This document shows, in pieces, positions 6,583 through 54,753 of a stretch of DNA of 64,000 nt. The position numbers and the translations under genes were made by a program. The DNA comes from an uncultured Oscillospiraceae bacterium (GTDB lineage: Bacteria > Bacillota > Clostridia > Oscillospirales > Oscillospiraceae). The notes under the pieces were generated by a model. The model ran no database searches. It was not told where the DNA came from and was given only the letters and a program-made list of their open reading frames with translations. The stretch spans positions 1,532-65,531 of the forward strand of contig CAKUIM010000007.1 in NCBI GenBank assembly GCA_934660965.1, read 5' to 3'. How positions within the stretch are numbered: position 1 is the first letter of the stretch; each line of letters opens with the position of its first letter.

Positions 6583-6583
<1 letters not shown>

Positions 6584-6970: not shown

Positions 6971-6999
6971 ATTATAGCACTTTTGTCAAGCAATAGCAA
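6971..6999 (-). promoter_or_regulatory. Sigma-A type promoter of the V-ATPase operon
   Basis: On the minus strand: TTGCTA, 17 nt, TATAAT, with an extended TGc just upstream of the -10. About 70 nt upstream of the ntpF start. Confidence 0.5.
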
Positions 7000-7313: not shown

Positions 7314-7364
7314 CGGCTCGTACAAGGGAATCCACCACATGAACATGAAAAGGAGATCTATGAA

Positions 7365-8285: not shown

Positions 8286-8308
8286 TCAAAAACTGCACAA
8301 GCGGCGTC

Positions 8309-8330
8309 AGGGGCGGGTTCTCCCGCCCTT
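8309..8330 (+). other. Intercistronic hairpin between pstS and pstC
   Basis: GGGCGGG-TTCT-CCCGCCC stem-loop in the 91-nt pstS-pstC gap with a weak T tract. Could be a partial terminator or mRNA stabiliser, as is common after binding-protein genes. Confidence 0.3.
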
Positions 8331-8376
8331 GCCGCCGTATCCGCACACCCGGTCGTCCCGGGAGAGAGGAGCCCCT

Positions 8377-13854: not shown

Positions 13855-13870
13855 CCCATCCGCACGGCAA

Positions 13871-13910
13871 AGCCCGGCCTGCTTTCGCAGGCCGGGCTCT
13901 TTGCTTGCTT
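13871..13910 (+). terminator. Rho-independent terminator after phoR
   Basis: AGCCCGGCCTGC-TTTC-GCAGGCCGGGCT followed by CTTTGCTTGCTTT. Confidence 0.8.
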
Positions 13911-13927
13911 TGACGCGCCCCTCAAGC

Positions 13928-14201
13928 CTCCCTCCCTCAAGGCTCCCCTGAAAGGGGAGCTGTCGAGCGTTAAGCGAGACTGAGGGATTGCACGCGCAGC
14001 GTCTTTGGCTCCCTCTGATGAGGGAGCTGTCGAGCGATAGCGAGACTGAGGGAGAGAGGCCTTAACGCCAATGCTGTTTTTCTCTCCCTCCGTCAAAGCC
14101 TGCAGCTTTGCCACCTCCCTCGTCAGAGGGAGGCTTTCAGGGCTCCCTCCCTCAAGGCTCCCCTGAAAGGGGAGCTGTCGAGCGTTAAGCGAGACTGAGG
14201 G
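13928..14201. repeat. Cluster of structured intergenic repeat units
   Basis: A perfect 59-bp direct repeat at 13928-13986 and 14143-14201 (CTCCCTCCCTCAAGGCTCCCCTGAAAGGGGAGCTGTCGAGCGTTAAGCGAGACTGAGGG). A variant unit at 14009-14051 (CTCCCTCTGATGAGGGAGCTGTCGAGCGATAGCGAGACTGAGGG). An inverted hairpin CCTCCCTCGTCAGAGGGAGG at 14115-14134. Confidence 0.85.
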
Positions 14202-14279
14202 GTTGCCCAGCACGTGCCCGGCCCTCTCTCGGCGAACAGCGCCCGGGCCATCCGGCCCGGGCGCTGCTCCTTCTTCTTT

Positions 14280-35047: not shown

Positions 35048-35761
35048 TCACACGGCGCCGGGCAGCAGCTTATAGCCCCGGTACTCCTGCAAAAGGGCGC
35101 CCATGTTGCTGTAGCCCGTCTTGCGGTAGATGTTGCGCATGTGGGTGCGCACCGTGTTCATAGACACCACCAGCGCGTCCGCCACCCCCTGATAGGTCTT
35201 GCCGGCGAAGAAGAGGTCCACCACCTCAAGCTCCCGCTTGGTCAGGCCGTGCTTCCGGCAGAAGGCCTGCTCCCCCGCCGTTTTCTTCTCCAGATCCCGG
35301 CGGACGTAGTCCTCCAGATGGGCGGACTTCCAGATGGTGCACACCACCAGCTCCAGCTGCCCGTCCCGGCCAAACACCGGTGAGCCCATCACAATGCCCG
35401 TGTCCATCCGTCCGTCCTTCAAAATGGTGCCGATGGACCGCACCCCCCGGCGCTCCCGGATGACCTCCGGCGTCACGCCGCCCTCAAAGAGGTTGTTCTG
35501 CCGCTCCAGCTCCTCCACCGAGCGGCCCACCACCTCCTCCGCCCGGATACCGGTGGCCTCCTCATAGGCGCGGTTTACATAAACCGTCGTCCCCTGGGCG
35601 TCGGCGATGTACACGCCCACGGCCAGATGGTCCAGGATGCGCCGGCAGTCCTGCCCGGCCCGCTCCTGCTCCAGGTCGCTCAGGGCGGCGGCCGCGGCGG
35701 CCTTGTCCTCCCCCTCCGGGAGCCGGCCGATGATCTCGTACAGCTGAGAAATAGGTTCCAT
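35048..35761 (-). CDS. PAS-domain / LuxR-type HTH transcriptional regulator
   Basis: Trimmed to MEPISQLYEI... PAS core ILDHLAVGVYIADAQGTTVYVNRAYEEATGIRAEEVVGRSV. C-terminal LTKRELEVVDLFFAGKTYQGVADALVVSMNTVRTHMRNIYRK. Confidence 0.75.
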   Translation of the reverse strand: MEPISQLYEIIGRLPEGEDKAAAAAALSDLEQERAGQDCRRILDHLAVGVYIADAQGTTVYVNRAYEEATGIRAEEVVGRSVEELERQNNLFEGGVTPEVIRERRGVRSIGTILKDGRMDTGIVMGSPVFGRDGQLELVVCTIWKSAHLEDYVRRDLEKKTAGEQAFCRKHGLTKRELEVVDLFFAGKTYQGVADALVVSMNTVRTHMRNIYRKTGYSNMGALLQEYRGYKLLPGAV

Positions 35762-35927
35762 GGCGCGCGCCCCTTTCTCTTCCGGCCGCCTGCCCGTCGC
35801 CGCGGCCGGTGTGTTCCCGGACAGTATATCACGTCCGCCGCCGCCGCACAAGCGGCAGCTTTCCCGCCGGCCCCGGAAAGACGCATCGCCGGCCCCTTTG
35901 GGGCCGGCGATAGAAAAATTCCTGCGG

Positions 35928-37091
35928 TCAGATCACCCGCAGCCGGATGATGCCGGGGATGGCGCGGATGCCCGCCAGGGCCTCCTCCTCGGCGGCGGCG
36001 CCCAGATCCACCAGGGTATAGGCGTAATCCCCCCGGGACTTGTTGGTCATGTTCTCCACGTTGATGCCGTTTTTGGACAGCTGCAGGGTGATGTTGGCCA
36101 GCATGGCGGGGATGTTCTTGTGAACGATGCACAGCCGCTGCACGCCGGAGCGCTCCATCTCCACGTTGGGGAAGTTGACGGAGTTTTTGATGTTGCCGTT
36201 CTCAAGGTAATCCTTGAGCTGCCGGGCAGCCATCACCGCGCAGTTCTCCTCGCTCTCCGGGGAGGACGCACCCAGATGGGGGATGGCCACCACATTTTTG
36301 GCCAGGGTGATGGTGTTGTCCGGGAAGTCGGTAACATAGCAGGCCGCCTTGCCCGATTCCAGCGCGGCGATCATGGCCTCGTCGTCCACAAGCTCGCCCC
36401 GGGCCAGGTTCAGGATGCGCACCCCGTCCTTCATGGCGGCAAGGGCCTCGGCGTTAACGGTGCCGCGGGTGGCGTCGGTATAGGGCAGGTGGAGGGTCAC
36501 ATAGTCGGCCCGGCGGTAGAGCTCGCCCAGGTCCTTCACCACGTGGACGTGGCGGTCCAGCCGCAGGGCGGTGTCCACCGAGAGATAGGGGTCATAACCG
36601 TAGACCTCCATGCCGAGGGACAGGGCGGCGTTTGCCACCAGCACGCCGATGGCCCCCAGCCCGATGACGCCCAGGGTCTTATGGTAGATCTCCGGCCCCA
36701 CAAAGGCGGACTTGCCCTTTTCCACCGCGGCGGCCACGTCCACCCCGGGGGTCGCGGCCTGCTCCCGCACCCAGTCGGCCCCGCCCAGCACATTGCGGGA
36801 GGCCAGCAGCAGCGCGCAGATGGCAAGCTCCTTCACGGCGTTGGCGTTGGCGCCGGGGGTGTTGAACACCACGATGCCCGCCTGGGCACAGCGCTCCACC
36901 GGGATGTTGTTGGTGCCCGCCCCGGCCCGGGCGATGGCAAGGAGCGACTCCGGGAAGGGATAGTCGTGGAGCTTTGCCGAGCGCACCAGGATGCCGTCCT
37001 CATTATAGAGGTCGCTGCCCGCCCGGTAGTCCGGCCCCAGCACGTCAAGGCCGGCCTGAGCGATGGCATTCATCGTCTTAATCTGAAACAT
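35928..37091 (-). CDS. serA: D-3-phosphoglycerate dehydrogenase (with C-terminal ACT domain)
   Basis: 387 aa. ARAGAGTNNIP, GVIGLGAIGVLVA, ...PHLGASSPESE..., C-terminal ACT-like RLCIVHKNIPAMLANIT. Co-transcribed after serC. Confidence 0.85.
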   Translation of the reverse strand: MFQIKTMNAIAQAGLDVLGPDYRAGSDLYNEDGILVRSAKLHDYPFPESLLAIARAGAGTNNIPVERCAQAGIVVFNTPGANANAVKELAICALLLASRNVLGGADWVREQAATPGVDVAAAVEKGKSAFVGPEIYHKTLGVIGLGAIGVLVANAALSLGMEVYGYDPYLSVDTALRLDRHVHVVKDLGELYRRADYVTLHLPYTDATRGTVNAEALAAMKDGVRILNLARGELVDDEAMIAALESGKAACYVTDFPDNTITLAKNVVAIPHLGASSPESEENCAVMAARQLKDYLENGNIKNSVNFPNVEMERSGVQRLCIVHKNIPAMLANITLQLSKNGINVENMTNKSRGDYAYTLVDLGAAAEEEALAGIRAIPGIIRLRVI

Positions 37092-37106
37092 GTCTCCCGC
37101 CCCCCT

Positions 37107-38192
37107 TCAGTTGGCCTTGTCAAAGGCGCGGATGAAATCGGCCAGCTTTTCAACGCCCTCTACCGGCATGGCGTTGTAGATGGACGCGCGCATGCCGCCC
37201 ACATTCCGGTGGCCCTTGAGGTTGACAAAGCCGGCGGCGGTGGCCTCGGCGACGAATTTGGCGTCCAGCTCGGCATTGCCGGTGCGGAAGGTCACGTTCA
37301 TGTCCGACCGGCTGCCCTTCTCCGCCGGGCAGGTGAAGAGGCGGGAATCGTCCAGCACGTCGTAGAGAAGCGCGGCCTTGCCGTGCTTGAGCTTCTCCAT
37401 GCCCTCAACGCCGCCCTTGCCGTCCAGCCACTCCAGCACCAGGCCCAGCATATAAATGCACCAGCAGGGGGGCGTGTTGTACATGGAGTCCTTGTCGATC
37501 ATGGTCTTGTAGCTCATCATCAGCGGGGTATAGGGCAGCTCGCCGCCGGCCAGATCCTCCCGGACGATGGCGATGGTCAGCCCCGCCGGGGCCAGGTTCT
37601 TCTGGGCGCCGCCGAAGATGATGCCGTACTTGGATACGTCCACCGCCCGGCTCAGGAAATCGGAGGACATGTCGCACACGATGGGCACGTCGCCGGTGTC
37701 GGGGACATACTGCCACTCGGTGCCGTAAATGGTGTTGTTGGCACAGTAGTAGAAATAGCTGGCCTCCGGGTCCAGCTTAAGCTGATCCTGGGCGGGGATA
37801 TAGGTGTGATTGCGGTCCTCGCTGGAGGCGGCCAGATTGATGGTGCCGTACTTCTTGGCCTCTTTATAGGCGATGTTGGCGAAGTTGCCGGTGACGGCGT
37901 AGTCCGCCTTGCCCGTGCGGCCCATCAGGTTCAGGGGCACCATGGAGAACTGGGCGGAGGCGCCCCCCTGCAGGAAGAGCACCCTGTAGTTGTCGGGCAC
38001 GCGGAACAGGCGGATGAAATTCGCCTTGGCGTCCTCAAAAATCTTCTCAAAGACCTTAGATCGGTGGCTCATCTCCATAACAGACATACCGGACCCCTGA
38101 TAATTGGTGATCTCAGACCCGGCACGGGTGAGCACTTCCAGCGGCAGCATGGAAGGGCCAGCGGAAAAATTATAAACGCGATTGGTTCCCAT
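37107..38192 (-). CDS. serC: Phosphoserine aminotransferase
   Basis: 361 aa. VYNFSAGPSMLP, ...FLQGGASAQF..., GAQKNLAPAGLTIAIVRE, NLKGHRNVGGMRASIYNAMP. Confidence 0.92.
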   Translation of the reverse strand: MGTNRVYNFSAGPSMLPLEVLTRAGSEITNYQGSGMSVMEMSHRSKVFEKIFEDAKANFIRLFRVPDNYRVLFLQGGASAQFSMVPLNLMGRTGKADYAVTGNFANIAYKEAKKYGTINLAASSEDRNHTYIPAQDQLKLDPEASYFYYCANNTIYGTEWQYVPDTGDVPIVCDMSSDFLSRAVDVSKYGIIFGGAQKNLAPAGLTIAIVREDLAGGELPYTPLMMSYKTMIDKDSMYNTPPCWCIYMLGLVLEWLDGKGGVEGMEKLKHGKAALLYDVLDDSRLFTCPAEKGSRSDMNVTFRTGNAELDAKFVAEATAAGFVNLKGHRNVGGMRASIYNAMPVEGVEKLADFIRAFDKAN

Positions 38193-38257
38193 GAGTCATA
38201 CTCCTCTCTTTCGGTCTTTTGGTTTAGTTTAATAGCGCTTTAGTGCGCTGTAACCTT

Positions 38258-38287
38258 ATTATATGGGCCCCATCCAGTTTCTGTCAA
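38258..38287 (-). promoter_or_regulatory. Sigma-A type promoter for serC-serA
   Basis: Minus strand: TTGACA, 18 nt, TATAAT, about 65 nt upstream of ATG 38192. Confidence 0.55.
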
Positions 38288-38610: not shown

Positions 38611-38955
38611 ATGAAACTGGAGGAAGTCCGCCGTATTCTCTGCGCCGATGTGCTGTGCGGAGAGGAAGCCCTCGACCAGGAGGTCAGCTCCGCCTGCGGC
38701 AGCGATTTCATGAGCGATGTCCTGACCTTTGTCAGCCCCCAGCCCTCCCTTCTGCTCACCGGCCTTGTCAACCCCCAGGTGATCCGCACCGCAGACATGG
38801 TGGATGCACGCTGCATCGTATTTGTCCGGGGAAAGGTCCCCGACGCGGATATGCTGGAGCTGGCCCGCCAGCGCCAGATGGTGGTGATGGCCACAGCCCT
38901 GCGCATGTACCCGGCCTGCGGCCTTCTCTACACCGCCGGCCTGCGGGGGGACTGA
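38611..38955 (+). CDS. DRTGG-domain protein (first of two)
   Basis: 114 aa. MKLEEVRRILCADVLCGEEALDQEVSSACGSDFMSDVL...LLLTGLVNPQVIRTADMVDARCIVFVRGK. This pattern is typical of the small DRTGG proteins found next to [FeFe]-hydrogenase loci. Confidence 0.75.
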   Translation: MKLEEVRRILCADVLCGEEALDQEVSSACGSDFMSDVLTFVSPQPSLLLTGLVNPQVIRTADMVDARCIVFVRGKVPDADMLELARQRQMVVMATALRMYPACGLLYTAGLRGD

Positions 38956-38959
38956 CGGC

Positions 38960-39385
38960 ATGGAGAGCATCCGCCTGACCTACGCCGTGGCGGGAGGGGA
39001 TCTGACCATGGCGGGGGAGGCCTCCAGCCAGGTCAAGCAGACCCTGCGCAAGCTGGCGCTGGACGCCGATACCATCCGCCGGGTGTCCGTGTGCATGTAC
39101 GAGGGTGAGATCAATATGGTCATCCACGCAAACGGCGGCACCGCCACGGTGGAAATCGGCCTTGATGACATCACCATCACCCTGGCCGACTCCGGCCCGG
39201 GCATCCCCGACGTGGACCTTGCCATGAAGGCGGGCTACTCCACCGCCAGCGCGGTGGCCCGTGACCTGGGCTTCGGCGCCGGCATGGGCCTTCCCAACAT
39301 GAAAAAATACAGCGATGAGATGACCATCGAATCCACCGTAGGGGTGGGCACCACGGTCACGCTGCTCATCCGTATTCCGCAATAG
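38960..39385 (+). CDS. GHKL-type ATP-binding protein (SpoIIAB/RsbW-like 'anti-sigma regulatory factor' fold), no DHp/His domain
   Basis: 141 aa. N-box YEGEINMVIHA, G1 DSGPGI, G2 GFGAGMGLPNM. Confidence 0.75.
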   Translation: MESIRLTYAVAGGDLTMAGEASSQVKQTLRKLALDADTIRRVSVCMYEGEINMVIHANGGTATVEIGLDDITITLADSGPGIPDVDLAMKAGYSTASAVARDLGFGAGMGLPNMKKYSDEMTIESTVGVGTTVTLLIRIPQ

Positions 39386-39428
39386 CCCCGGGCGCGCCCA
39401 GCGCCCCTTGTCATGGGAGGTGTTTCCT

Positions 39429-40778
39429 ATGCGCCACTCCGTGGCCCTTGATCTGAAAAAATGCCGGGGCTGCACCACCTGCATCAAAAGCTGCCCCACC
39501 GAGGCCATCCGGGTCCGCAACGGCAAGGCCACCGTCCTGCCCAACCGCTGCATCGACTGCGGCACCTGCATCCGGGTATGCCCCCACAAGGCAGTGCAGT
39601 CCCTGTGCGACACGCTCCGCGACCTGCAGGACTATCCCTACACCGTGGCCGTGCCCGACCCGGCGCTTTACGGCCAGTTCCAGAATCTGGACGACCGGGA
39701 GATCATTCTTAACGCCCTGCCCGCCCTGGGCTTTGACGAGGTGTTCGAGTCCGCCGCCGCCAGCGAGCTGCTCTCCGACGCCGCCCGGCAGCGCATCCAA
39801 AACGGAGAGGGCCGTGTCCTGCCTGAGATCTCCTCCGCCTGCCCGGCGGTCGTGCGGCTCATTTCCATCCGTTTCCCCAAGCTCATCAGCCACATCGCCC
39901 CCATCGTCACCCCCTCGGAGCTTGCCGCCATCCTCGCCCGCAAACGGGCCGCGGAGGCCACCGGCCTTCCGCCGGAGCAGATCGGGGTGTTCTCCATCGT
40001 CCCCTGCTCCTCCCTTGTCACCGCCGCCCACTCGCCGGTGGGCCTTGACAAGCCGGTGCTCAACGGCGCCTTCGCCATCCGGGACGTGTATCTTGCCCTG
40101 CTGGAGCCCATGCGCCGGCTGGACCCGGAGGCCCTGCGCCCCCTGTCCCGCTCGGGTATTATGGGGGTAAGCTGGGCCTACGCCGGGGGCGAGTCCGCCT
40201 CCCACCTGCGGGAGCGCTATGTGGCGGTAGACGGCATCGACAATGTCATCAGGATGCTCGAGGACATTGAGGACGGCCGCTTCCCCGAGGCGGACTTTGT
40301 GGAACTGCGCGCCTGCACCCAGGGCTGCGTGGGGGGCTGCCTGAACGTGGAGAACCCCTTCGGCGCCAAAATGCGCCTGAAAAAGGTCATGCATGAGCTG
40401 CCCGTTTCCCGGACGGAAATCGCCGGCCAGGCCGACGCCCTGGACATCCTCCGCTCCGCTCGCCGCCCGGAATTTCTCCCCGCCCTGCAGCTCGACTCCA
40501 ACCGGCTGCGGGCCATGGAAAAGATGACCCGCATCCAGGCCCTGGAGCGGCAGCTGCCCGGCCTGCGCTGCGGCTCCTGCGGCGCCCCCTCCTGCCACGC
40601 CTTCGCCGAGGACGTGGTCATGGGCCGGGCCCGGGAGGATGACTGCATCTTCAAGGTGCGCGAGCGCATGCAGCACATGACCGGCGCGCCGGACGCAGAT
40701 GACTATCTGCCCGCTCCCTTCCGCCGCCCCCATGAGAGCTCCGGCTCCGGCCCCGACTCCGTCTCCTCCCGCCGCTGA
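39429..40778 (+). CDS. [FeFe]-hydrogenase-like protein: 2x[4Fe-4S] ferredoxin N-terminus, Fe-hydrogenase large-subunit C-domain with degenerate H-cluster motifs, C-terminal PF04060-type Fe-S domain
   Basis: Start at ATG 39429 after GGGAGGTG. CRGCTTCIKSCP and CIDCGTCIRVCP. L1-like ISSACPAVV, L2-like IVPCSS, L3-like ELRACTQGCVGGC. C-terminal LRCGSCGAPSCHAFAEDVV...DDCIF. Confidence 0.8.
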   Translation: MRHSVALDLKKCRGCTTCIKSCPTEAIRVRNGKATVLPNRCIDCGTCIRVCPHKAVQSLCDTLRDLQDYPYTVAVPDPALYGQFQNLDDREIILNALPALGFDEVFESAAASELLSDAARQRIQNGEGRVLPEISSACPAVVRLISIRFPKLISHIAPIVTPSELAAILARKRAAEATGLPPEQIGVFSIVPCSSLVTAAHSPVGLDKPVLNGAFAIRDVYLALLEPMRRLDPEALRPLSRSGIMGVSWAYAGGESASHLRERYVAVDGIDNVIRMLEDIEDGRFPEADFVELRACTQGCVGGCLNVENPFGAKMRLKKVMHELPVSRTEIAGQADALDILRSARRPEFLPALQLDSNRLRAMEKMTRIQALERQLPGLRCGSCGAPSCHAFAEDVVMGRAREDDCIFKVRERMQHMTGAPDADDYLPAPFRRPHESSGSGPDSVSSRR

Positions 40779-40828
40779 CCGCCCCCGCTCCCTTTCGTGC
40801 TCCAAAATCCCTCTGCATAAGAAAGGCA

Positions 40829-41188
40829 GTGATCCCCTTGACTGTTGCACAGCTCATTGATCGCCTGGACCTTGGCGTTTTCCATCTTGCCGACCCAGAC
40901 GCCGCCGTCCTGGGCGGCTACTGCGGCGACCTTCTAAGCTGGGTCATGGGCCGCGCCGTCGAAGGCGAGGCGTGGCTTACCATCATGAGCAATATAAACG
41001 TGGCGGCGGTGGCCTCCCTGGCCGGAGCGCCCTGCGTCATCCTCACCGAGGGCGTGCCCCCCGACCCGCCCCTGCTCGCGCGCGCCCGGGAGCAGGGTGT
41101 CACCCTTCTGGGCACCGGGCTTTCCACCTACCGGTGCGCCGCCGCCCTCTCCAATGCCCTCTCGCAGCCGCCGGAAGGCCGGATCTGA
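40829..41188 (+). CDS. DRTGG-domain protein (second)
   Basis: 119 aa with a GTG start. ...GGYCGDLLSWVMGRAVEGEAWLTIMSNINVAAVASLAGAPCVILTEGVPP... Confidence 0.7.
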   Translation: MIPLTVAQLIDRLDLGVFHLADPDAAVLGGYCGDLLSWVMGRAVEGEAWLTIMSNINVAAVASLAGAPCVILTEGVPPDPPLLARAREQGVTLLGTGLSTYRCAAALSNALSQPPEGRI

Positions 41189-41192
41189 CGCC

Positions 41193-41906
41193 ATGCCGGA
41201 CTACTTCTTCGACCTGCATCTTCATAGCTGCCTGTCCCCCTGCGGCGGCGAGGAAATGACCCCCTGCGACCTTGCCGCCATGTGCGCCCTGGCCGGACTC
41301 CAGATCGTCGCCCTCACTGACCACAACACCGCCGGCAACTGCGCCGCCTTCTGCGCCGCAGCCCGCCGCTGCGGCCTGCTGGCCCTGCCCGGCATGGAGC
41401 TCACCACCCGGGAGGAGGTCCATGTGGTGTGCCTCTTCCCCGGCCTTGCCGAAGCCGAAGCTTTCTCCCGAACGGTGCGCGCCCTGCTGCCCCCCATCCC
41501 CAACGATCCCGCCGTGTTCGGCCCCCAGCTCCTCATGGACGACCGGGACCGCATCCTCGGAGAGGAGACCGCCCTGCTCGCCGGCGCCGCCGACATCGGC
41601 GTGTACGAGGCCGCCCGGGCGGTGGAGGCCCTCGGGGGCGTCGCCTACCCCGCCCATATCGACCGGCCGTCCTTCTCCCTGCTTGCAAGCCTCGGCCTGT
41701 GGGACCCGGCCCTGGGCTTCCCTCTGGCGGAGATCTCCCCCCATTGCCCGCCGGAGCTGCTGCGCCGGCGCGACCTTGCCGGGGTGCGCACCATCACCGC
41801 CTGCGATGCCCACTATCTCCACCAGATTCCCGACGCCCACCAGACCATGTTCCTGTCCGCCCTCACCCCCGAGGCCGTGCTGGAATGGCTGCGCCGGAGC
41901 GGCTGA
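41193..41906 (+). CDS. PHP-domain (polymerase/histidinol-phosphatase family) metal-dependent phosphoesterase
   Basis: Trimmed to MPDYFFDLHLHSCLSPCGG... Then LTDHNT, PGMELTTREEVHVVCLF, AYPAHIDR, TACDAHYL. Confidence 0.75.
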   Translation: MPDYFFDLHLHSCLSPCGGEEMTPCDLAAMCALAGLQIVALTDHNTAGNCAAFCAAARRCGLLALPGMELTTREEVHVVCLFPGLAEAEAFSRTVRALLPPIPNDPAVFGPQLLMDDRDRILGEETALLAGAADIGVYEAARAVEALGGVAYPAHIDRPSFSLLASLGLWDPALGFPLAEISPHCPPELLRRRDLAGVRTITACDAHYLHQIPDAHQTMFLSALTPEAVLEWLRRSG

Positions 41907-42040
41907 CGGCCCCTCACCCCTTCCAAACTCTCCGCCAGGCCCGTGGCCCGGCATCTCCCGGCTCCCTCCCCGCCGCAAGGCGGACTTGACTTATTTTCCG
42001 CCCTCATTCCCCTGAGTTTTGTGCCGAAACTCAGACTATT

Positions 42041-42069
42041 TTGCTGGGAATTCGGAAAATTCTTATAAA
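42041..42069 (+). promoter_or_regulatory. Sigma-A type promoter candidate for the hydrogenase operon
   Basis: TTGCTG, 17 nt, TATAAA in the AT-rich gap. Leaves a ~160-nt leader before ATG 42235. Confidence 0.4.
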
Positions 42070-42234
42070 ATATTTGTCAAATTTATGTAGTTAGCCTTTA
42101 CTAACCCTCTGCCACTGTGTTAAACTTATAACGATTGGACGGGCGGTTGTTAAAAAATAACGGCCGCCCTGTTCCATTACCCAGGAAACCCTGACCGCCC
42201 CTGCCCGGTCAAACCATTATAAGGAGGAACCACT

Positions 42235-42738
42235 ATGCCCAACTGCAAAACCGCAGTCCCGTACCGGCCCGACCCGGAGCGGGAGGAGCGCCTGCGCCAG
42301 GTCATTGCGGAACACAAAGGCCAGAGCGGCGCCACCATGCCCGTTCTTCAGGCCGCGCAGAATATCTTCGGATATCTGCCGGAGGAGGTCCAGATCATGA
42401 TCGCCGAGGGGCTGGACATTCCCCTGTCCGAGGTCTACGGCGTTGCCACCTTCTACTCCCTGTTCACCCTCAACCCCAAGGGCAAATACAAGATCTCCGT
42501 GTGTCTCGGCACCGCCTGCTATGTCAAGGGCGCCGGCGACGTGCTGGAGGCCGTTGAAAAAAAGCTCAATATCGCCCCCGGCGGCATCACGGCGGACGGC
42601 CTGTTCTCCCTGGAGGCCTGCCGCTGCATCGGCGCGTGCGGTCTGGCCCCCGTCATGACCATCAATGAGGATGTCTACGGCCGGCTCACCCCCGCCCAGA
42701 TCGGCCCCATCCTGGATCAGTACATTCAGAAGGGATGA
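42235..42738 (+). CDS. hydC: NuoE-like [2Fe-2S] subunit of a multimeric [FeFe]-hydrogenase (HydC/HndA type)
   Basis: 167 aa. ...VCLGTACYVKGAGDVLE..., LEACRCIGACGLAPVMTINEDVYGRL. Confidence 0.88.
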   Translation: MPNCKTAVPYRPDPEREERLRQVIAEHKGQSGATMPVLQAAQNIFGYLPEEVQIMIAEGLDIPLSEVYGVATFYSLFTLNPKGKYKISVCLGTACYVKGAGDVLEAVEKKLNIAPGGITADGLFSLEACRCIGACGLAPVMTINEDVYGRLTPAQIGPILDQYIQKG

Positions 42739-43286
42739 AGGAGCTCTCCCTTCACCTTCTTGACATTGCGCAGAACTCCCTTGCCGCCGGTGCGCAGCAC
42801 CTGGACATCTCCCTCACCGAGGACGGCGCGGGCCGGCTGGAGATCACCGTCTCCGACGACGGCCGGGGCATGACGCCGGAGCTGCTCGCGCGCGTCACCG
42901 ACCCCTTCACCACCACCCGCACCACCCGGAAGGTGGGCCTTGGTCTGCCCCTCTACCGCCTGGCGGCGGAGCAGACCGGCGGCAGCCTTGCCATCCAGAG
43001 CGCCGTGGGCCGCGGCACCGTTGTCACCGCGGTATTCTGCCGCACCCACCTGGACTGCCCCCCGCTGGGGGACCTGGCCGGGACGGTGGCGCTGCTCATC
43101 CAGGGCAGCCCCGGCGTCAGCCTCACCTACCGGCACACCACCCCCTCCGGCGCCGCAGCGCTCTCCACCGCGCAGCTCACCGACGCCCTGGGGGAGGACG
43201 TGAGCCTGTCAGAGCCGGCAGTCTTTGCATGGATCCGCGACTATCTCTCCGAGCAGGAAGCCCAAATAGAAGGAGCTGAATCATAA
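42735..43286 (+). CDS. GHKL-type ATP-binding protein embedded in the hydrogenase operon
   Basis: 183 aa. HLLDIAQNSLAAGA (N-box), DDGRGM (G1), GLGLPL (G2). No His-phosphotransfer domain. ATGA overlap with hydC. Confidence 0.75.
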   Translation: MKELSLHLLDIAQNSLAAGAQHLDISLTEDGAGRLEITVSDDGRGMTPELLARVTDPFTTTRTTRKVGLGLPLYRLAAEQTGGSLAIQSAVGRGTVVTAVFCRTHLDCPPLGDLAGTVALLIQGSPGVSLTYRHTTPSGAAALSTAQLTDALGEDVSLSEPAVFAWIRDYLSEQEAQIEGAES

Positions 43287-43288: not shown

Positions 43289-43657
43289 ATGAAGAGCCTG
43301 GAAGAACTCAAAGCCATTCGTGAAAAGATGAAGAAGCAGATGGACCTGCGGGACAGCGACGACAGCAATATCCGCGTGGTCGTCGGCATGGCCACCTGCG
43401 GCATCGCCGCCGGCGCCCGCCCTGTGCTGTCCGCCTTCCTGGAGGAGGTTGACAAGCGGGGCCTCCAGAACATCACCGTCTCTCAGACCGGCTGCATCGG
43501 CGTGTGCCGTCTGGAGCCCATTGTGGAGGTCTTTGTCCCCGGCCAGGAGAAGGTCACCTACGCCAAGGTCAAGCCCGAGATGGTCCCCATCATCGTGGAG
43601 CAGCACCTGGTCAACCACAACGTGGTCACCGATTTCACCATCGGCGCTGCCGAATAA
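43289..43657 (+). CDS. Thioredoxin-like [2Fe-2S] ferredoxin domain protein (HndB type)
   Basis: 122 aa. ...VVVGMATCGIAAGA..., SQTGCIGVCRLEPIVEV. Confidence 0.8.
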   Translation: MKSLEELKAIREKMKKQMDLRDSDDSNIRVVVGMATCGIAAGARPVLSAFLEEVDKRGLQNITVSQTGCIGVCRLEPIVEVFVPGQEKVTYAKVKPEMVPIIVEQHLVNHNVVTDFTIGAAE

Positions 43658-43671
43658 GGAGGTAAGTTCAC

Positions 43672-45474
43672 ATGAATCACATCCGCTGCCACATTATGGT
43701 GTGCGCCGGTACCGGCTGTACCTCCTCCGAAAGCCCCAAGATCATCGATGCCTTTGAGCGCGAGCTCAAGGCCGCCGGCGTGGACAGCGAGGCCAAGGTC
43801 GTCAAGACCGGCTGCTTCGGCCTGTGCGCCATGGGGCCCATCGTCATGGTGTTCCCCGAGGGCGCCTGCTACACCCGCGTCACCGCCGACGACGTGCCCG
43901 AGATCGTCTCCGAGCACATTGTCAAGGGCCGCATCGTAGAGCGTCTGCTCCACATGGACGGCGACGCCGGCGAGACTGTCACCTCCCTTGCCGACACCCA
44001 GTTCTATAAGCACCAGATGCGCATTGCCCTGCGCCACTGCGGCGTCATCGACCCCGAGTCCATCGACGAGTACCTGGGCGTCAACGGCTACACCGCCCTC
44101 GAGCGCGTCCTCACCGAGAAGATCCCCCCTCAGGAGATCATCGACTCCCTGAAGAAGTCCGGCCTGCGCGGCCGCGGCGGCGCGGGCTTCTCCACCGGCA
44201 TGAAGTGGCAGTTCACCTACGACGCCGTCAGCCCCGACGGCATCAAGTACGTCTGCTGCAACGCCGACGAGGGCGACCCCGGCGCCTTTATGGACCGCTC
44301 CATCCTGGAGGGCGACCCCTTCTCCGTCATCGAGGCCATGACCATCGCCGGCTACACCGTGGGCTCCAACCAGGGCTACATCTACATCCGCGCCGAGTAC
44401 CCCATCGCCGTCAAGCGCCTGGAGATCGCCATCGCCCAGGCCCGGGACTACGGCCTGCTGGGCGAGAACATTCTGGGCAGCGGCTTCTCCTTCAACCTGG
44501 AGCTGCGCCTGGGCGCCGGCGCCTTTGTGTGCGGCGAGGAGACCGCCCTGATGACCTCCATCGAGGGCCACCGCGGCGAGCCCCGTCCCCGTCCTCCCTT
44601 CCCCGCCGTCAAGGGCCTGTTCGCCCGTCCCACCCTCCTCAACAACGTGGAGACCTACGCCAACATCACCTGGATCCTCCTCAACGGCTGGGAAAAGTTT
44701 GCCGAGATCGGCACCGAGAAGTCCAAGGGCACCAAGGTGTTCGCCCTGGGCGGCAAGATCACCAACACCGGCCTTGTGGAGGTGCCCATGGGCACCACGC
44801 TGCGCACCATCATCGAGGACATCGGCGGCGGCATCCCCAACGGCAAGAAGTTCAAGGCCGCCCAGACCGGCGGCCCCTCCGGCGGCTGCATCCCCGCCGA
44901 GCTCATCGACACCCCCATCGACTATGACTCCCTCACCGCCATCGGCTCCATGATGGGCTCCGGCGGCCTGATCGTCATGGACGAGGACAACTGCATGGTG
45001 GACATCGCCAAGTTCTTCCTGGAATTCTGCGTGGACGAGTCCTGCGGCAAGTGCGTGCCCTGCCGCATCGGCACCAAGCGTCTTTACGACCTGCTGTGCA
45101 AGATTACCGACGGCAAGGGCACCCTGGAGGACCTTGACACCATCGAGGAGCTGTGCCACCACCTGAAGGACTCCGCCCTGTGCGCTCTGGGCCAGTCCGC
45201 CCCCAACCCGGTGCTGTCCACCCTGAAGTATTTCCGGGAGGAGTACATCGCCCACGTTGTGGAGAAGCGCTGCCCTGCCGGCGTGTGCCGGAACCTGCTG
45301 CACTACGAGATCCAGGCAGACAAGTGCAAGGGCTGCACCCTGTGCGCCCGCAGCTGCCCGGTGGGCGCCATCACCGGCGCGGTGCGCGCCCCCCATGTCA
45401 TCGACCAGGACAAGTGCATCAAGTGCGGCCTGTGCCAGAGCAACTGCCGCTTTGACGCCATTGTCAAGCACTAA
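43672..45474 (+). CDS. hydB: NuoF-like FMN/NAD(P)H-binding subunit of a multimeric [FeFe]-hydrogenase (HydB/HndC type)
   Basis: 600 aa. N-terminal 2Fe-2S CAGTGC...CFGLCAMGP. GLRGRGGAGFSTGMKW, NADEGDPGAFMDR, ESCGKCVPCR, and C-terminal 2x[4Fe-4S] CKGCTLCARSCP/CIKCGLCQSNC. Confidence 0.92.
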   Translation: MNHIRCHIMVCAGTGCTSSESPKIIDAFERELKAAGVDSEAKVVKTGCFGLCAMGPIVMVFPEGACYTRVTADDVPEIVSEHIVKGRIVERLLHMDGDAGETVTSLADTQFYKHQMRIALRHCGVIDPESIDEYLGVNGYTALERVLTEKIPPQEIIDSLKKSGLRGRGGAGFSTGMKWQFTYDAVSPDGIKYVCCNADEGDPGAFMDRSILEGDPFSVIEAMTIAGYTVGSNQGYIYIRAEYPIAVKRLEIAIAQARDYGLLGENILGSGFSFNLELRLGAGAFVCGEETALMTSIEGHRGEPRPRPPFPAVKGLFARPTLLNNVETYANITWILLNGWEKFAEIGTEKSKGTKVFALGGKITNTGLVEVPMGTTLRTIIEDIGGGIPNGKKFKAAQTGGPSGGCIPAELIDTPIDYDSLTAIGSMMGSGGLIVMDEDNCMVDIAKFFLEFCVDESCGKCVPCRIGTKRLYDLLCKITDGKGTLEDLDTIEELCHHLKDSALCALGQSAPNPVLSTLKYFREEYIAHVVEKRCPAGVCRNLLHYEIQADKCKGCTLCARSCPVGAITGAVRAPHVIDQDKCIKCGLCQSNCRFDAIVKH

Positions 45475-45491
45475 GGGAAGGAGTGACGAAC

Positions 45492-47252
45492 ATGGACAAG
45501 AAAATGATTTCGCTTACCATCGACAATATCCCCGTCATCGTTCCCGAGGGCACCACCATCCTGGAGGCCGCCCGCAGTGCCGGGATCAAGATCCCGTCTC
45601 TTTGCTACCTCAAGGATGTCAACGAGATCGGCGCCTGCCGCATCTGCGTGGTGGAGGTCAAGGGCGCCCGCTCGCTGATGGCCTCCTGCGTCTATCCCGT
45701 CAGCGAGGGCATGGAGGTCAAGACCAACACCCCCAAGGTCCGCCATTCCCGGCAGCTCACGCTGGAGCTCATCCTCTCCAACCACCGTATGGACTGTCTG
45801 ACCTGCTCCCGCAACGCCCACTGCGAGCTGCGGCAGCTGGCCGCAGACCTTGGCATCGACGCCGTGCGCTACGCCAATGACCAGCTGCTTCCCCAGATTG
45901 AGGACTCCGCCCTCCACCTGGTGCGGGATAACTCCAAGTGCATCCTGTGCCGCCGCTGTGTCGCCGCCTGCCGCAAGCAGCAGGCCGTGGGCGTTATCGG
46001 CCCCAACAACCGCGGCTTCAATACCCACATCGGCTCCGCCTTCGACCGGGACCTGGCCGAGGTGGACTGCGTTTCCTGCGGCCAGTGCATCGTGGCCTGC
46101 CCCACCGGCGCTCTGGCCGAGAAGAGCTCCGTTTCCGAGGTGCTCGAGGCCCTGCACGACCCCAATAAGCACGTTGTGGTGGGCCCCGCCCCCGCCGTGC
46201 GCGTCACCCTGGGCGAGTGCTTCGGCATGCCTGTTGGCACCAACGTGGAGGGCAAGATGATCTCCGCCCTGCGCCGCCTGGGCTTTGACAAGGTCTTTGA
46301 CGTGGACACCGCCGCCGACTTCACCATCATGGAGGAGGGCACCGAGTTCATCCAGCGCCTGGGCGAGGGCGGCACCCTGCCCATGATCACCTCCTGCTCC
46401 CCGGGCTGGATCCGCTTCTGCGAGCAGCACTACCCCGAGTTCATCCCCAACCTGTCCTCCTGCAAGTCCCCCCAGCAGATGTTCGGCTCCCTGGTGAAGA
46501 GCTATTACGCCGAGAAGATGGGCCTCAATCCCGAGGACATCTATGTGGTGTCCATCATGCCCTGCACCGCCAAGAAGTACGAGGTCAAGCGGGAAGAGCA
46601 GCGCATGAAGAACGGCTGCATGCCCGTGGACGCCTCCCTCACCACCCGCGAGCTTGCCCAGATGATCACCCAGGCCGGCATGATGTTTGACCACCTGCCC
46701 GACGGCACCTTCGACCCCATGCTGGGCCTGTCCACCGGCGCGTCCGTTATCTTCGGCGCCACCGGCGGCGTGATGGAGGCCGCGCTGCGCACCGTGGTGG
46801 CCAAGGTCACCGACAGCGAGATGGGCCCCCTGGAGTTCCACGAGGTCCGCGGCATCCAGGGTATCAAGGAGGCCACCTATGAGCTGCCCGGCAAGACTGT
46901 CCGGGTGTGCGTCGCCTCCGGCCTTTCCAACGCCAAGACTGTTCTGGACGGCATCCGCGCCGGAGAGCTCCACTATGACTTTATCGAGTTCATGGCCTGC
47001 CCCGGCGGCTGCATCAACGGCGGCGGCCAGCCCCTGCACCCCTCCTCCGTGCGCTCCTTCACCGATCTGCGCACCCTGCGCGCCCGCGCGCTCTACAAGC
47101 AGGACGAGGGCATGGAGCTGCGCAAGAGCCACGAGAACCCCGTGGTCAAGGAGGTCTACTCCACCTACCTGGGCGCCCCCGGCAGCCACAAGGCTCACGA
47201 ACTGCTCCACTGCGAGTACGTGCCCCAGAAGCGCTACCGCACCGACAACTGA
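45492..47252 (+). CDS. hydA: [FeFe]-hydrogenase catalytic subunit (HydA/HndD type, group A multimeric)
   Basis: Start at ATG 45492 after GGGAAGGAG. N-terminal 2Fe-2S CYLKDVNEIGACRIC, then CLTCSRNAHCELR, CILCRRCVAAC and CVSCGQCIVACP. H-domain motifs are L1 TSCSPGW, L2 MPCTAKKYE and L3 EFMACPGGCINGGGQP. Confidence 0.92.
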   Translation: MDKKMISLTIDNIPVIVPEGTTILEAARSAGIKIPSLCYLKDVNEIGACRICVVEVKGARSLMASCVYPVSEGMEVKTNTPKVRHSRQLTLELILSNHRMDCLTCSRNAHCELRQLAADLGIDAVRYANDQLLPQIEDSALHLVRDNSKCILCRRCVAACRKQQAVGVIGPNNRGFNTHIGSAFDRDLAEVDCVSCGQCIVACPTGALAEKSSVSEVLEALHDPNKHVVVGPAPAVRVTLGECFGMPVGTNVEGKMISALRRLGFDKVFDVDTAADFTIMEEGTEFIQRLGEGGTLPMITSCSPGWIRFCEQHYPEFIPNLSSCKSPQQMFGSLVKSYYAEKMGLNPEDIYVVSIMPCTAKKYEVKREEQRMKNGCMPVDASLTTRELAQMITQAGMMFDHLPDGTFDPMLGLSTGASVIFGATGGVMEAALRTVVAKVTDSEMGPLEFHEVRGIQGIKEATYELPGKTVRVCVASGLSNAKTVLDGIRAGELHYDFIEFMACPGGCINGGGQPLHPSSVRSFTDLRTLRARALYKQDEGMELRKSHENPVVKEVYSTYLGAPGSHKAHELLHCEYVPQKRYRTDN

Positions 47253-47263
47253 TTCTGCTGTCC

Positions 47264-47300
47264 AAAACCCCCGGCAAAGCATGCTTTGCCGGGGGTTTTT
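47264..47300 (+). terminator. Rho-independent terminator after hydA
   Basis: AAAACCCCCGGCAAAGC-AT-GCTTTGCCGGGGGTTTT plus a T run. Confidence 0.88.
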
Positions 47301-47402
47301 CCTGCCCCGGGGGTCGTTGACGCGGGCAAAACGGGCGTGTATAATAGGCTCAAAAAGGCGGGTATTTTGTCCCCTGCGCCCCATAACGGAAGGAGCTTTG
47401 GC

Positions 47403-48455
47403 ATGAACACTCTGGTCATTGAAAAAAGCGCCCTGAAAAATAACGTCAGCCGCATCAAGGAGCTTGCCGGCTCCGCCTATGTCTACGCCAACCTCTCCGG
47501 CGACGGCCAGGGGCTGGGGGCAGCCCCTCTGGCCCTTCTCCTGCGGGACGAGGGGGTGAGCCGCTTCGCGGTGGACAGCGTGGAGTCCGCCCAGGCCGTG
47601 CGCAAGGCCGGCCTTGTGGATGAGGAGCTTCTCATGCTCCGCTCCCTCACCGATCGCGCCGCCCTGGAGCAGCTGGCCGACCTGAACGTCATCTGCTCGG
47701 TTGGCTCGCTGGAGGCGGGCATGGCCCTCAACGCCGTGGCGGAAAACCGCTCCACCGTCATCGAGGCCCACCTGGAGATCGACAGCGGCATGGGCTTCGG
47801 CGGCTTCCCCGCCGAGGAGCCGGAAAAGATTGTCACTGTGGTCCACAACCTGCCCAACGTGGCCTTCTCCGGCGTCTACACCCAGCTTGCCAGCACCAAG
47901 GCCCTCCCCGCCCAGCTGGAGCTGTTCCAGAAGGCGGTGGACGCCCTGCGTGAGGCCGGCTGCGAGACCGGCCTTGTCCATGCCGCCGGCTCCTTCGCTC
48001 TGCTCCACAGCGACCTGACCCATCTCGACGCCGTCCGGGCCGGCTCCGCCCTGCTGGGCCGCTGCCAGCGCACCCGGGGGGACGGCCTGACCCTTGTGGG
48101 CTACGGCGAGGCCGCGGTGGAGAGCGTGCGCTGGCTGCCCGCCGGCCACACCGTGGGCAACGAAAAGCGCAAAACCCTGCGCAAGCCCACCCGCACCGCC
48201 GTCATCCCGGTGGGCTATCAGAACGGCTTCGGGGTAGAGCCCCCGGCGTCCGGCCTCTGGGAGGCCCTGCGGCGGCTGCGCCGGCAGCACCGGCGCACCG
48301 TGCGCATCAACGGCCAGCGCGCCCGCATCCTGGGCTCCATCGGCGCAAGCCAGATCCTGGTCAACGTCACCTCCCTCAAGTGCTCCGAGGGGGACATCGC
48401 CACCTTCGACATCGAGCCTATCTTCGCCCGGGGCTTCCGGCGGGAATTCCGCTGA
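47403..48455 (+). CDS. Alanine-racemase-fold (Ala_racemase_N/C) family protein, apparently lacking the canonical PLP lysine
   Basis: Trimmed to MNTLVIEKSALKNNV after GGAGC. Overall colinear with Alr (…HLEIDSGMGFGGF…, …IPVGYQNGF…, …VRINGQRARILGSI…). The VVKANAYGHG site reads VYANLSGDGQG. Confidence 0.6.
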   Translation: MNTLVIEKSALKNNVSRIKELAGSAYVYANLSGDGQGLGAAPLALLLRDEGVSRFAVDSVESAQAVRKAGLVDEELLMLRSLTDRAALEQLADLNVICSVGSLEAGMALNAVAENRSTVIEAHLEIDSGMGFGGFPAEEPEKIVTVVHNLPNVAFSGVYTQLASTKALPAQLELFQKAVDALREAGCETGLVHAAGSFALLHSDLTHLDAVRAGSALLGRCQRTRGDGLTLVGYGEAAVESVRWLPAGHTVGNEKRKTLRKPTRTAVIPVGYQNGFGVEPPASGLWEALRRLRRQHRRTVRINGQRARILGSIGASQILVNVTSLKCSEGDIATFDIEPIFARGFRREFR

Positions 48456-48467
48456 AGGGGGCGCGCC

Positions 48468-48902
48468 ATGAAAGCAGTGGTCACCCGGGTAAAAAATGCC
48501 CGCGTTGAGATCGGCGGCGCGGTGTGCGGCCAGATCGGCCAGGGCCTTCTGGTGCTGCTGGGCGTCGGCCCGGAGGACACCGAGGCCACCGCCGATAAAA
48601 TGGCGGACAAGCTCTGCGGCCTGCGCATTTTCGAGGACGAAGCCGGCAAAATGAACCGCAATCTCGCCGCCGTGGGGGGCGCGCTGCTCATCATCAGCCA
48701 GTTCACCCTCTATGCCGACACCTCCTCCCGCCGCCCCGGCTTCTCCGGCGCCGCCCGGCCGGAGCTTGCCATCCCCCTCTACGAGCGCGTCATGGCATCG
48801 TGCCGCGAGCGGGGCTTTGCCGTGGAGCACGGACAATTCGGCGCGGATATGCAGGTCTTTTCCCAGAACGACGGCCCCGTCACCATCCTTCTGGAGCTAT
48901 AA
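48468..48902 (+). CDS. dtd: D-aminoacyl-tRNA deacylase
   Basis: 144 aa. MKAVVTRV..., LLVLLGV, SQFTLYAD, NDGPVTILLE. Confidence 0.92.
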   Translation: MKAVVTRVKNARVEIGGAVCGQIGQGLLVLLGVGPEDTEATADKMADKLCGLRIFEDEAGKMNRNLAAVGGALLIISQFTLYADTSSRRPGFSGAARPELAIPLYERVMASCRERGFAVEHGQFGADMQVFSQNDGPVTILLEL

Positions 48903-53210: not shown

Positions 53211-53275
53211 CTTTCTTGTTCCTTTCCCGCCGGGCCGTCTCCTGCCCGGATTTGTTATTTTTATAACAATGCGTC

Positions 53276-53304: not shown

Positions 53305-53352
53305 AGTCTGTAATTGTGAGTGTTTTGCCTGATTTCCAAGGAGGTCTTTGCT

Positions 53353-54753
<1,401 letters not shown>

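Follow-up and report, generated by a model that had tools for sequence, protein, structure and literature searches.

A Group D-type putative sensory [FeFe]-hydrogenase and its conserved DRTGG, GHKL and PHP neighbours beside a bifurcating-type hydrogenase operon in an uncultured Oscillospiraceae bacterium

A 64,000-nucleotide stretch of DNA from an uncultured Oscillospiraceae bacterium (GenBank assembly GCA_934660965.1, contig CAKUIM010000007.1, positions 1,532 to 65,531; hereafter the window) contains five co-oriented genes (38611-41906, forward strand) that precede the operon of a bifurcating-type [FeFe]-hydrogenase, HydABC. In order, they encode the small protein DRTGG1, the ATPase GHKL1, a hydrogenase-like protein of 449 amino acids (aa), HydS, a second small protein, DRTGG2, and a PHP-family phosphoesterase (PHP). 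On balance, we interpret the five genes as a Group D (M2e) sensory hydrogenase with dedicated signalling proteins that together control HydABC. It is likely that their products form a sensor or regulatory complex for this enzyme. The fit of the HydS sequence to its class, the tight co-inheritance of the genes, natural gene fusions and conserved catalytic residues were all observed and are described below. The genes are separated by 4, 43, 50 and 4 nt, and a further 328 nt lead to hydC. All forward-strand coordinates of this layout, which had been reported in an initial annotation made from the letters of the window, were confirmed.

HydS (39429-40778, counted from an ATG; an alternative upstream TTG start is possible at 39408) matched the Pfam families Fer4 (twice), Fe_hyd_lg_C and PF04060, and no PAS domain was matched. 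In an alignment of 40 diverse relatives, cysteines C12, C18, C22, C41, C44, C47 and C51 of the two N-terminal [4Fe-4S] motifs were invariant and C15 was nearly so. The H-cluster cysteines (C138, C193, C296 and C300) were invariant as well, as were C381, C384, C389 and C406 of a C-terminal Cx2Cx4Cx16C motif, which in the window reads CGSCGAPSCHAFAEDVVMGRAREDDC (residues 381-406). This motif was kept in 120 of 120 close and 121 of 149 wider relatives. The initial annotation had described a protein combining a hydrogenase H-domain with Fe-S clusters, and all cysteines for the H-cluster and three accessory clusters were indeed kept. The P1 motif, SSACP, has Ala in place of the proton-relay Cys (CpI C299); P2 is VPCSSL (residues 190-196), with Leu at the position of CpI K358, and P3 is ELRACTQGC. 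Since it lacks PAS, has lost the proton-relay Cys, possesses the Cx2Cx4Cx16C motif and keeps the cluster cysteines, HydS fits, by its sequence features, the M2e / Group D putative sensory [FeFe]-hydrogenases of the TamHydS type. The family is large, with at least 7,900 clusters at 90% identity (E <= 1e-10) and 387 clusters at 50% identity (E <= 1e-30), and a collection of species-representative genomes contained relatives in at least 556 stretches. An identical 449-aa HydS was present on 23 human-gut metagenome contigs, each with the same ten genes.

Group A enzymes bind the distal cyanide (CN) ligand through the Lys of their MPCxxK motif (CpI K358). Among the 120 closest 90%-identity clusters of HydS this position was occupied by Leu (57), Gln (49), Lys (9) or Met (3), the remaining two being other or unmatched. 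Wider Group D proteins mostly have Lys or Arg there, and most of them read PC[PA]AK where the window reads PCSSL. The position of CpI M497 was Arg in 91 of the same 120 clusters. Compensation of the lost K358 by this Arg was considered and rejected: the raw association was strong (Fisher p ~1e-21), but it amounted to 6/16 versus 12/80 among 50%-identity representatives and is mostly phylogenetic, so that no compensation is claimed. The clade of the window's HydS may have a different way of holding its cofactor, or it may now be no more than a redox sensor based on Fe-S clusters. The copy of the Protein Data Bank (PDB) that was searched contained no solved structure or complex of a Group C or Group D HydS.

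A gene of this kind upstream of HydABC is not new. The arrangement has been in the literature since 2010-2012 (Carere 2012, which follows Calusinska 2010). In Carere 2012, a “D M2e” gene lies upstream of the “A1 TR(M3)” bifurcating hydrogenase, the first listed hydrogenase gene following five locus tags on, and the M2e genes upstream of HydABC are said to adjoin “protein kinases”. The pairs include Cthe_0335 / Cthe_0340-42 in C. thermocellum, TTE0887 / TTE0892-94 in Caldanaerobacter subterraneus and Athe_1292 / Athe_1297-99 in Caldicellulosiruptor, and others are given for C. phytofermentans and Thermoanaerobacter. The gene numbering in Table 6 of that paper and in the Rex-regulon table (Athe_1292 versus Athe_1295-99) fits the window's gene order in C. 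bescii, C. thermocellum and further species.

The best-studied member of the class is TamHydS from Thermoanaerobacter mathranii, on whose biochemistry at least four papers appeared from 2020 to 2026 (including Land 2020, PMC8163306, and PMC13104023). It binds an H-cluster, turns over slowly and shifts its secondary structure with H2. Loss of the proton-relay Cys is a feature of M2e enzymes (PMC8163306). The N-terminal clusters form an electron path, and the C-terminal cluster region is conserved but functionally unexplained (PMC13104023). By its published description, TamHydS has the same build as the window's HydS (two [4Fe-4S] clusters, H-domain, Cx2Cx4Cx16C, no PAS, proton-relay Cys lost), and its gene likewise lies upstream of bifurcating HydABC, next to a “histidine kinase-like ATPase”. 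The two differ in active-site positions: the window's HydS has Val, Leu and Arg at CpI M353, K358 and M497, whereas Ser at 353 and Leu at 497 are reported for TamHydS. HydDB includes a “histidine kinase-linked” sensory subgroup. The statement in the initial annotation that characterised sensory hydrogenases use PAS domains was therefore out of date, PAS-less TamHydS having been characterised since 2020. Its other statement, that no functional description was known, still stands: no role for the DRTGG or PHP genes was described in the searchable literature, and the April 2026 paper on TamHydS regards its interaction partners as still to be identified and calls this critical (PMC13104023). The proposal of a regulatory module of unmapped mechanism is supported, but such a module was already in the literature and is not of a new kind.

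Co-inheritance was assessed in a species-level set of 80 loci, in which HydS was 44-52% identical to that of the window. The loci were labelled Oscillospiraceae, Ruminococcus, Lachnospiraceae, Clostridium, Thermoanaerobacteraceae and others, and were annotated with class-specific hidden Markov models seeded with the window's ten proteins. The order DRTGG1-GHKL1-HydS-DRTGG2-PHP was kept in essentially every locus with enough flanking sequence. DRTGG1 was present in 73 of 74 evaluable loci, GHKL1 in 73 of 76, DRTGG2 in 75 of 78 and PHP in 70 of 73. HydABC adjoined the module in 29 of the 33 loci whose flanks each reached at least 7-8 kb; the operon hydC-GHKL2-fdx-hydB-hydA, which contains a second GHKL gene, was located downstream on the same strand in 16, upstream and divergent in 13 and was absent from four.

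GHKL2 was used as an independent anchor in metagenome contigs, giving 38 evaluable loci, and the HydS module was found in 35 of them. In 14 loci the module was embedded in the operon (hydC-DRTGG1-GHKL1-HydS-DRTGG2-PHP-GHKL2-fdx-hydB-hydA), 10 were of the window type, with the module followed by hydC-GHKL2-fdx-hydB-hydA, seven had the module followed by GHKL2 with hydC unseen, and four were divergent; HydS was not found in the remaining three. The position of hydC therefore varies among species, either behind the module or ahead of it. Since the module and the hyd operon stay together in three gene orders (co-directional, divergent and embedded), their linkage survives rearrangement, and the presence of the module in 35 of the 38 loci indicates that the orphan GHKL2 travels with it. 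GHKL2 is likely to be part of the same signalling system. The recurrence of the five-gene arrangement in 80 species-level loci and in these 35 metagenome loci is far beyond chance. Both expectations of the initial annotation, that the module would co-occur with hydCBA and that similar neighbourhoods would exist near hydABC in other Clostridia, were borne out.

No DNA-binding protein or sigma factor was conserved in or near the module across the 80 loci, as had been observed for the window itself. The other recurring neighbours in this set were serA/serC (12 loci, as in the window), GGDEF-EAL (9), AraC (4) and PolA, and no further gene family occurred in more than 12 of the 80. An AraC gene also flanks TamHydS, but with four occurrences it is not a conserved neighbour. 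One metagenome contig (L136; Ga0180435_10002201, 5778-14593) had DRTGG1, GHKL1, DRTGG2, PHP, hydC, GHKL2, fdx and hydB and no HydS gene. On this contig GHKL1 ends at 7113 and DRTGG2 begins at 7179, and the final “HydA” match consists of the N-terminal Fe-S domain only.

Natural fusions tie three of the neighbours to HydS. Among the best 150 representatives of the 387 clusters at 50% identity, 11 were overlong and had an extra domain. DRTGG2 was fused to the C-terminus of HydS in eight independent clusters, DRTGG1 to its N-terminus in two and GHKL1 to its N-terminus in one (P0156). Inspection of the genomic context indicated that the fusions are real genes. One HydS::DRTGG2 fusion (P0139) was found in two independent samples, an NCBI metagenome-assembled genome and a JGI metagenome, with no separate DRTGG2 gene and in the context DRTGG1-GHKL1-[HydS::DRTGG2]-PHP-like gene-GHKL2-fdx-like gene. 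A DRTGG1::HydS fusion occurred in a permuted order, DRTGG2-PHP-GHKL2-(DRTGG1::HydS)-fdx (L087; Logan contig of SRR26974495, 3-3468). There, GHKL2 lies directly ahead of the fused gene, next to the sensor; GHKL1 and hydC were unseen on this short contig. No fusion of PHP to HydS was found among the 150 representatives, and none among the accessory proteins or with PHP in 166 fetched loci. Independent fusions of several neighbours to one protein are classical evidence of physical association. As three different neighbours have fused independently to HydS, we have good confidence that DRTGG1, GHKL1 and DRTGG2 bind it directly. The fused ends suggest docking sites, with DRTGG2 behind the C-terminal cluster domain and DRTGG1 and GHKL1 ahead of the ferredoxin-like domain.

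The two small proteins could both be assigned to the DRTGG fold, in agreement with the initial annotation. DRTGG1 (38611-38955, 114 aa, stand-alone) scored 18.6 bits against Pfam DRTGG, under the cut-off of 25.2. The assignment nevertheless holds because its AlphaFold2 model (predicted local distance difference test, pLDDT, 92) can be superposed on AF1212 (2ioj), itself a DRTGG protein, with a Foldseek template modelling (TM) score of 0.87. The model also matched the DRTGG domain of CBS-pyrophosphatase (TM 0.73) and the N-domain of HPr kinase/phosphorylase, and most of the close homologues listed had a precomputed PF07085 match. A STAS-like fold was ruled out, since the Foldseek search returned no STAS structure and found the DRTGG / HPrK-N fold instead. 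The invariant residues of DRTGG1 are D32, S35, D36, T50, G51, Q56, R59, T60 and R73-G74-K75. DRTGG2 (40829-41188, 119 aa, GTG start) matched both DRTGG, above the cut-off, and Hpr_kinase_N, each with 27.5 bits, and D34, L36, S37, W49 and N57 are invariant in it.

GHKL1 (38960-39385, 141 aa) is a stand-alone GHKL ATPase or kinase of SpoIIAB-like size. It matched Pfam HATPase_c and HATPase_c_2 and has N, G1 and G2 boxes and no dimerization and histidine phosphotransfer (DHp) domain. Its ATP-binding residues (N-box E48/N52, G1 D77-G79-G81, G2 G104-G110) were 96-100% conserved in 86 sequences. Its best PDB match was SpoIIAB (1til/1l0o/1th8, E 2e-7), bearing out the SpoIIAB likeness that the initial annotation had seen. 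The scores against the NCBIfam models were below cut-off, with 55.7 bits versus 135 for SpoIIAB (TIGR01925) and 15.6 versus 145 for RsbW. The further orphan GHKL protein noticed in the hyd operon is GHKL2 (42735-43286, forward strand, 183 aa), which matches Pfam HATPase_c and has the invariant residues N14, D41, G43, G45, G68 and G70. By profile, its best PDB match was the catalytic and ATP-binding (CA) domain of histidine kinases (KinB, 3d36, 9e-15). In its AlphaFold2 model (pLDDT 90) a small alpha/beta subdomain is present at the C-terminus, and taken as a whole the chain bears a loose likeness to the N-terminal domain of MutL/PMS2 (TM ~0.5). No HisKA or DHp match was found in either protein, and no response regulator was conserved nearby in the 80 loci.

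The last gene of the module (41193-41906, 237 aa from an ATG) matched Pfam PHP (PF02811) with 29.3 bits against a cut-off of 26.4. All nine metal ligands (H9, H11, D43, H44, E69, H77, H155, D205 and H207) were invariant in 25 sequences. C17 and C80 were also invariant in these sequences and set the PHP clade apart. Four Cys, at residues 13, 17, 50 and 80, are invariant or nearly invariant in the clade (HSCLSPC..., NC, H..C). C17 follows SP where relatives read SD or SDG and may replace the usual metal-binding Asp, and the clade may have an altered or redox-sensitive metal site. The closest solved relatives by profile were a 5'-3' exoribonuclease (7ug9), EndoQ, a pAp phosphatase (2yb1) and 3e0f, the matches to nucleotide-active enzymes spanning only the N-terminal 80-100 residues, and there were weak NCBIfam matches to 3',5'-nucleoside bisphosphate phosphatase and RNase RNM. 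Protein-phosphatase relatives of the CpsB/YwqE type were sought by sequence and by profile, and none was found. The family had thus been called correctly, but the protein-phosphatase role implied by the initial annotation finds no counterpart among the closest solved relatives of the enzyme, which act on nucleotides or nucleic acids.

Several known systems resemble the module in part. The Group C (M2f) proteins TmHydS, R. albus HydS and T. saccharolyticum HfsB are also slow, have an H-cluster and a C-terminal [4Fe-4S] cluster, are proposed to be H2 sensors and are encoded beside bifurcating hydrogenases and kinase/phosphatase genes. Unlike the window's module, they have a PAS domain, and their partners are PP2C phosphatases and Ser/Thr or His kinases (HydDB C1-C3) instead of two DRTGG proteins, an orphan GHKL protein and PHP. 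HoxBC-HoxJ-HoxA of Cupriavidus necator similarly combines a low-activity [NiFe]-hydrogenase with a GHKL-type kinase in a complex that controls energy-converting hydrogenases. However, the histidine kinase HoxJ is complete, having both PAS and DHp domains, and the response regulator HoxA binds DNA; the module has neither of these features. The SpoIIAB-SpoIIAA-SpoIIE and RsbW-RsbV-RsbU systems likewise have a stand-alone GHKL protein of 140-160 aa whose ATP site is intact, and a phosphoesterase and small alpha/beta proteins are encoded next to it. The module differs from them in having DRTGG instead of STAS, PHP instead of PP2C and no sigma factor. Given these absences and the sub-threshold SpoIIAB and RsbW scores, the partner-switching circuit suggested in the initial annotation could not be upheld as a family membership and may serve at most as a working analogy. 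The DRTGG fold is common to CBS-pyrophosphatase (3l2b/3l31), AF1212 and the N-domain of HPr kinase/phosphorylase (TM 0.73-0.87), where it is a regulatory or dimerising module and no catalyst. The DRTGG proteins of the window differ from these in being free-standing, in occurring as two paralogous forms with their own invariant motifs and in being repeatedly fused to a hydrogenase.

The complex, the ATP and phosphoesterase cycle, and the target and direction of control are what we infer in the following model. HydS would provide the input, its H-cluster and N-terminal clusters reporting H2 or the redox state. DRTGG1 and GHKL1 would bind its N-terminal side and DRTGG2 would sit beside the C-terminal [4Fe-4S] domain, all in one complex. 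Changes in HydS driven by H2 or redox state would alter an ATP-dependent step of GHKL1, and probably also of GHKL2. The switch set by ATP might consist in ATP-dependent clamping, or else a partner, for instance a DRTGG protein, might be phosphorylated; the PHP phosphoesterase would reset it. The specific cycle in which a DRTGG protein is phosphorylated by a GHKL protein and dephosphorylated by PHP appears doubtful to us; such a kinase/phosphatase pair is plausible but unproven, since the solved relatives of PHP are nucleotide or nucleic-acid phosphoesterases. The switch would control the linked hydC-GHKL2-fdx-hydB-hydA hydrogenase; this output most likely operates at the protein level, or else via a regulator whose gene lies elsewhere. 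We prefer these outputs to a local transcription factor, given that DNA-binding proteins are not conserved and that embedding of the module is frequent. Post-translational control of HydABC is possible, if somewhat short of probable. NADH-responsive Rex probably gives separate transcriptional control of hydC-hydA. In the gut clade of the window, where the CN-binding Lys is lost, the sensor may read something other than H2, for example the redox state through its Fe-S clusters. The most far-reaching version of the model, in which DRTGG1, GHKL1, DRTGG2, PHP and GHKL2 form an undescribed ATP-driven switch on a sensory hydrogenase, using neither STAS/PP2C nor a His-Asp relay and gating HydABC at the protein level by H2, is in our opinion rather unlikely.

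A number of observations weigh against a sensory complex acting on HydABC. The four accessory proteins are tied to HydS and HydABC through their genes alone. With Leu or Gln at the position of CpI K358 in its clade, and Leu at this CN-binding position in the window, H-cluster binding by the window's HydS is not assured. The H2-sensing role of Group D enzymes is still termed “putative”, and the C-terminal cluster of TamHydS did not respond to H2 (PMC13104023). Four modules stand alone without an adjacent HydABC; as their flanks consist of unrelated housekeeping genes, no alternative target was found for them. L136 retains all the accessory genes, and since it has no HydS the accessory set may be able to work without a hydrogenase-type sensor. 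The DRTGG proteins have no STAS-like fold, a phospho-acceptor cannot be named in them, and their invariant Ser and Thr residues may be mere features of the fold. The predicted fold of GHKL2 is compatible with a kinase as well as with an ATPase clamp. The nearest solved relatives of PHP hydrolyse nucleotides or nucleic acids.

Some of these points would suit other explanations. The five proteins and GHKL2 could be assembly or maintenance factors, in which hydrogenase-like HydS, the two GHKL proteins as chaperone or clamp ATPases similar to Hsp90 or MutL, DRTGG adaptors and PHP build, activate or repair HydABC(D). The embedding of the module in the structural operon in 14 of the 38 GHKL2-anchored loci, with short gaps such as the 39 nt between PHP and GHKL2 in L135, speaks for such factors, and the loose MutL/PMS2 likeness of GHKL2, the lack of a conserved DNA-binding output and the accessory genes without HydS in L136 agree with it. 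We nevertheless consider this improbable. TamHydS is stable and catalytically competent but slow, with sensor-like kinetics, and the divergent and stand-alone arrangements suit a regulator better. The nearest relative of GHKL1 is the anti-sigma kinase SpoIIAB, and by sequence GHKL2 is nearest to histidine-kinase CA domains. Moreover, recombinant HydABC could be prepared, and its structure solved, in the absence of the module proteins, and solved HydA1 chains were among the structures in our PDB search. It seems highly improbable that HydS, tethered by the small proteins and without any signalling, serves the hydrogenase as an additional module for catalysis or electron transfer, such as a site of slow H2 uptake. 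Such a role would account for the retention of all cluster ligands, the N-terminal electron path known from TamHydS and the co-operonic, at times embedded, genes. However, the proton pathway is broken and turnover is low in the characterised member, and this role hardly explains the phosphoesterase and the two conserved ATP-binding proteins. Purified HydABC(D) enzymes are not known to contain HydS.

A nucleotide-based signal is a further alternative, and we regard it as decidedly unlikely. Here PHP would degrade pAp, a short oligonucleotide or a nucleotide messenger, and the DRTGG proteins would belong to a nucleotide-responsive switch that combines energy charge with H2 or redox state. The solved relatives of PHP (7ug9, 2yb1 and EndoQ, with no protein phosphatase among them) and its weak matches to 3',5'-nucleoside bisphosphate phosphatase and RNase RNM are in line with this, as is the match of the DRTGG1 model to the DRTGG domain in the adenine-nucleotide-regulated region of CBS-pyrophosphatase. 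The relevant PHP matches, however, are confined to the N-terminal 80-100 residues, the invariant C17 and C80 set this clade apart, and a messenger cyclase or synthetase is not encoded. In CBS-pyrophosphatase, furthermore, the nucleotide binds to the CBS pair and not to DRTGG. We thus retain a sensory hydrogenase with dedicated signalling proteins as the preferred interpretation.

The presumed target is encoded directly downstream, also on the forward strand. The operon comprises hydC (42235-42738; NuoE-like 2Fe-2S subunit, Pfam 2Fe-2S_thioredx 179 bits), GHKL2, fdx (43289-43657; 2Fe-2S ferredoxin), hydB (43672-45474; NuoF-like) and hydA (45483-47252), the last three belonging to an NADH/ferredoxin-dependent bifurcating-type [FeFe]-hydrogenase. 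HydA matched NCBIfam NF040763 (“NADH-dependent [FeFe] hydrogenase, group A6”) with 880 bits against a cut-off of 765. Its P1 motif (46380-46400) reads TSCSPGW, versus TSCCPxW in textbooks. As the same motif is found in 56 of 56 HydA proteins of this operon type and in the solved bifurcating HydA1 (PDB 7q4v), it is a family trait and not an error.

The 328-nt spacer before hydC (41907-42234) contains a terminator-like 10-bp hairpin with a T-run behind it (42012-42034) and an AT-rich promoter region. At 100 nt from hydC there is also a Rex-like box, GTGTTAAACTTATAACGA (42117-42134); it has three mismatches to TTGTTAANNNNTTAACAA and is thus only suggestive. The spacer was too diverged for an informative alignment with those of two relatives. 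Rex-like boxes with at most two mismatches are enriched upstream of hydC, being found in 15 of 63 such regions compared with 39 in the whole 1.25 Mb of loci. Published DNA affinity purification sequencing (DAP-seq) and comparative work assigns the five-gene hydC-hydA operon to the Rex regulon in both C. thermocellum and C. bescii. Based on this published target and on the enrichment, the hyd operon probably has its own NADH-responsive promoter, with the sensor module as a separate unit in the window's arrangement. The best Rex-like box of the window, TTGTTATTTTTATAACAA (53252-53269, two mismatches), is located between a thiolase gene (52002-53210, reverse strand) and a PAS/sigma-54 activator gene (53320-54753, forward strand). 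Among Clostridia, thiolase is one of the classical targets of Rex, and this box suggests that a Rex regulon exists in the organism. A rex gene was not found in the window by tblastn with an approximate B. subtilis Rex sequence as the query.

Upstream of the module, a 418-nt divergent spacer contains a perfect sigma-70 consensus (TTGACA-18-TATAAT; 38258-38287, reverse strand) directed at serC/serA. No Rfam family reached threshold anywhere in the window; thus, neither long spacer has a known riboswitch or leader. A regulator with PAS and GerE (LuxR-type helix-turn-helix) domains lies two genes upstream of the module (L005:5620-6333, on the identical contigs L005 and L006; approximately 35.0-35.8 kb of the window, reverse strand). 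It is missing there in a 66%-identical relative (L001) and is therefore not a conserved partner. Long open reading frames opposite real genes were observed at 35760-38243 (forward, 827 aa), 45471-48836 (reverse, 1121 aa) and 43558-45471 (reverse, 637 aa). Their translations are of low complexity and rich in Gly, Ala and Arg; they look like the usual artefact of a G+C content of about 65%, as in the window, and were not counted as genes.

Bifurcating HydABC sets the fermentative H2 yield in gut, rumen and biofuel Clostridia. H2 sensing by [FeFe] “sensory” hydrogenases is a recognised unsolved problem, and Group D has a well-studied enzyme with no known partner. The locus itself is ordinary, having thousands of relatives. 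The comparative evidence names candidates for the missing components, namely three small proteins that would bind HydS at defined ends, and two ATP-binding proteins and one hydrolase that may constitute the switch. C. thermocellum and Caldicellulosiruptor are genetically tractable, and by published gene numbering they have the same HydS-HydABC layout. The question of Group D signalling thereby becomes directly testable.

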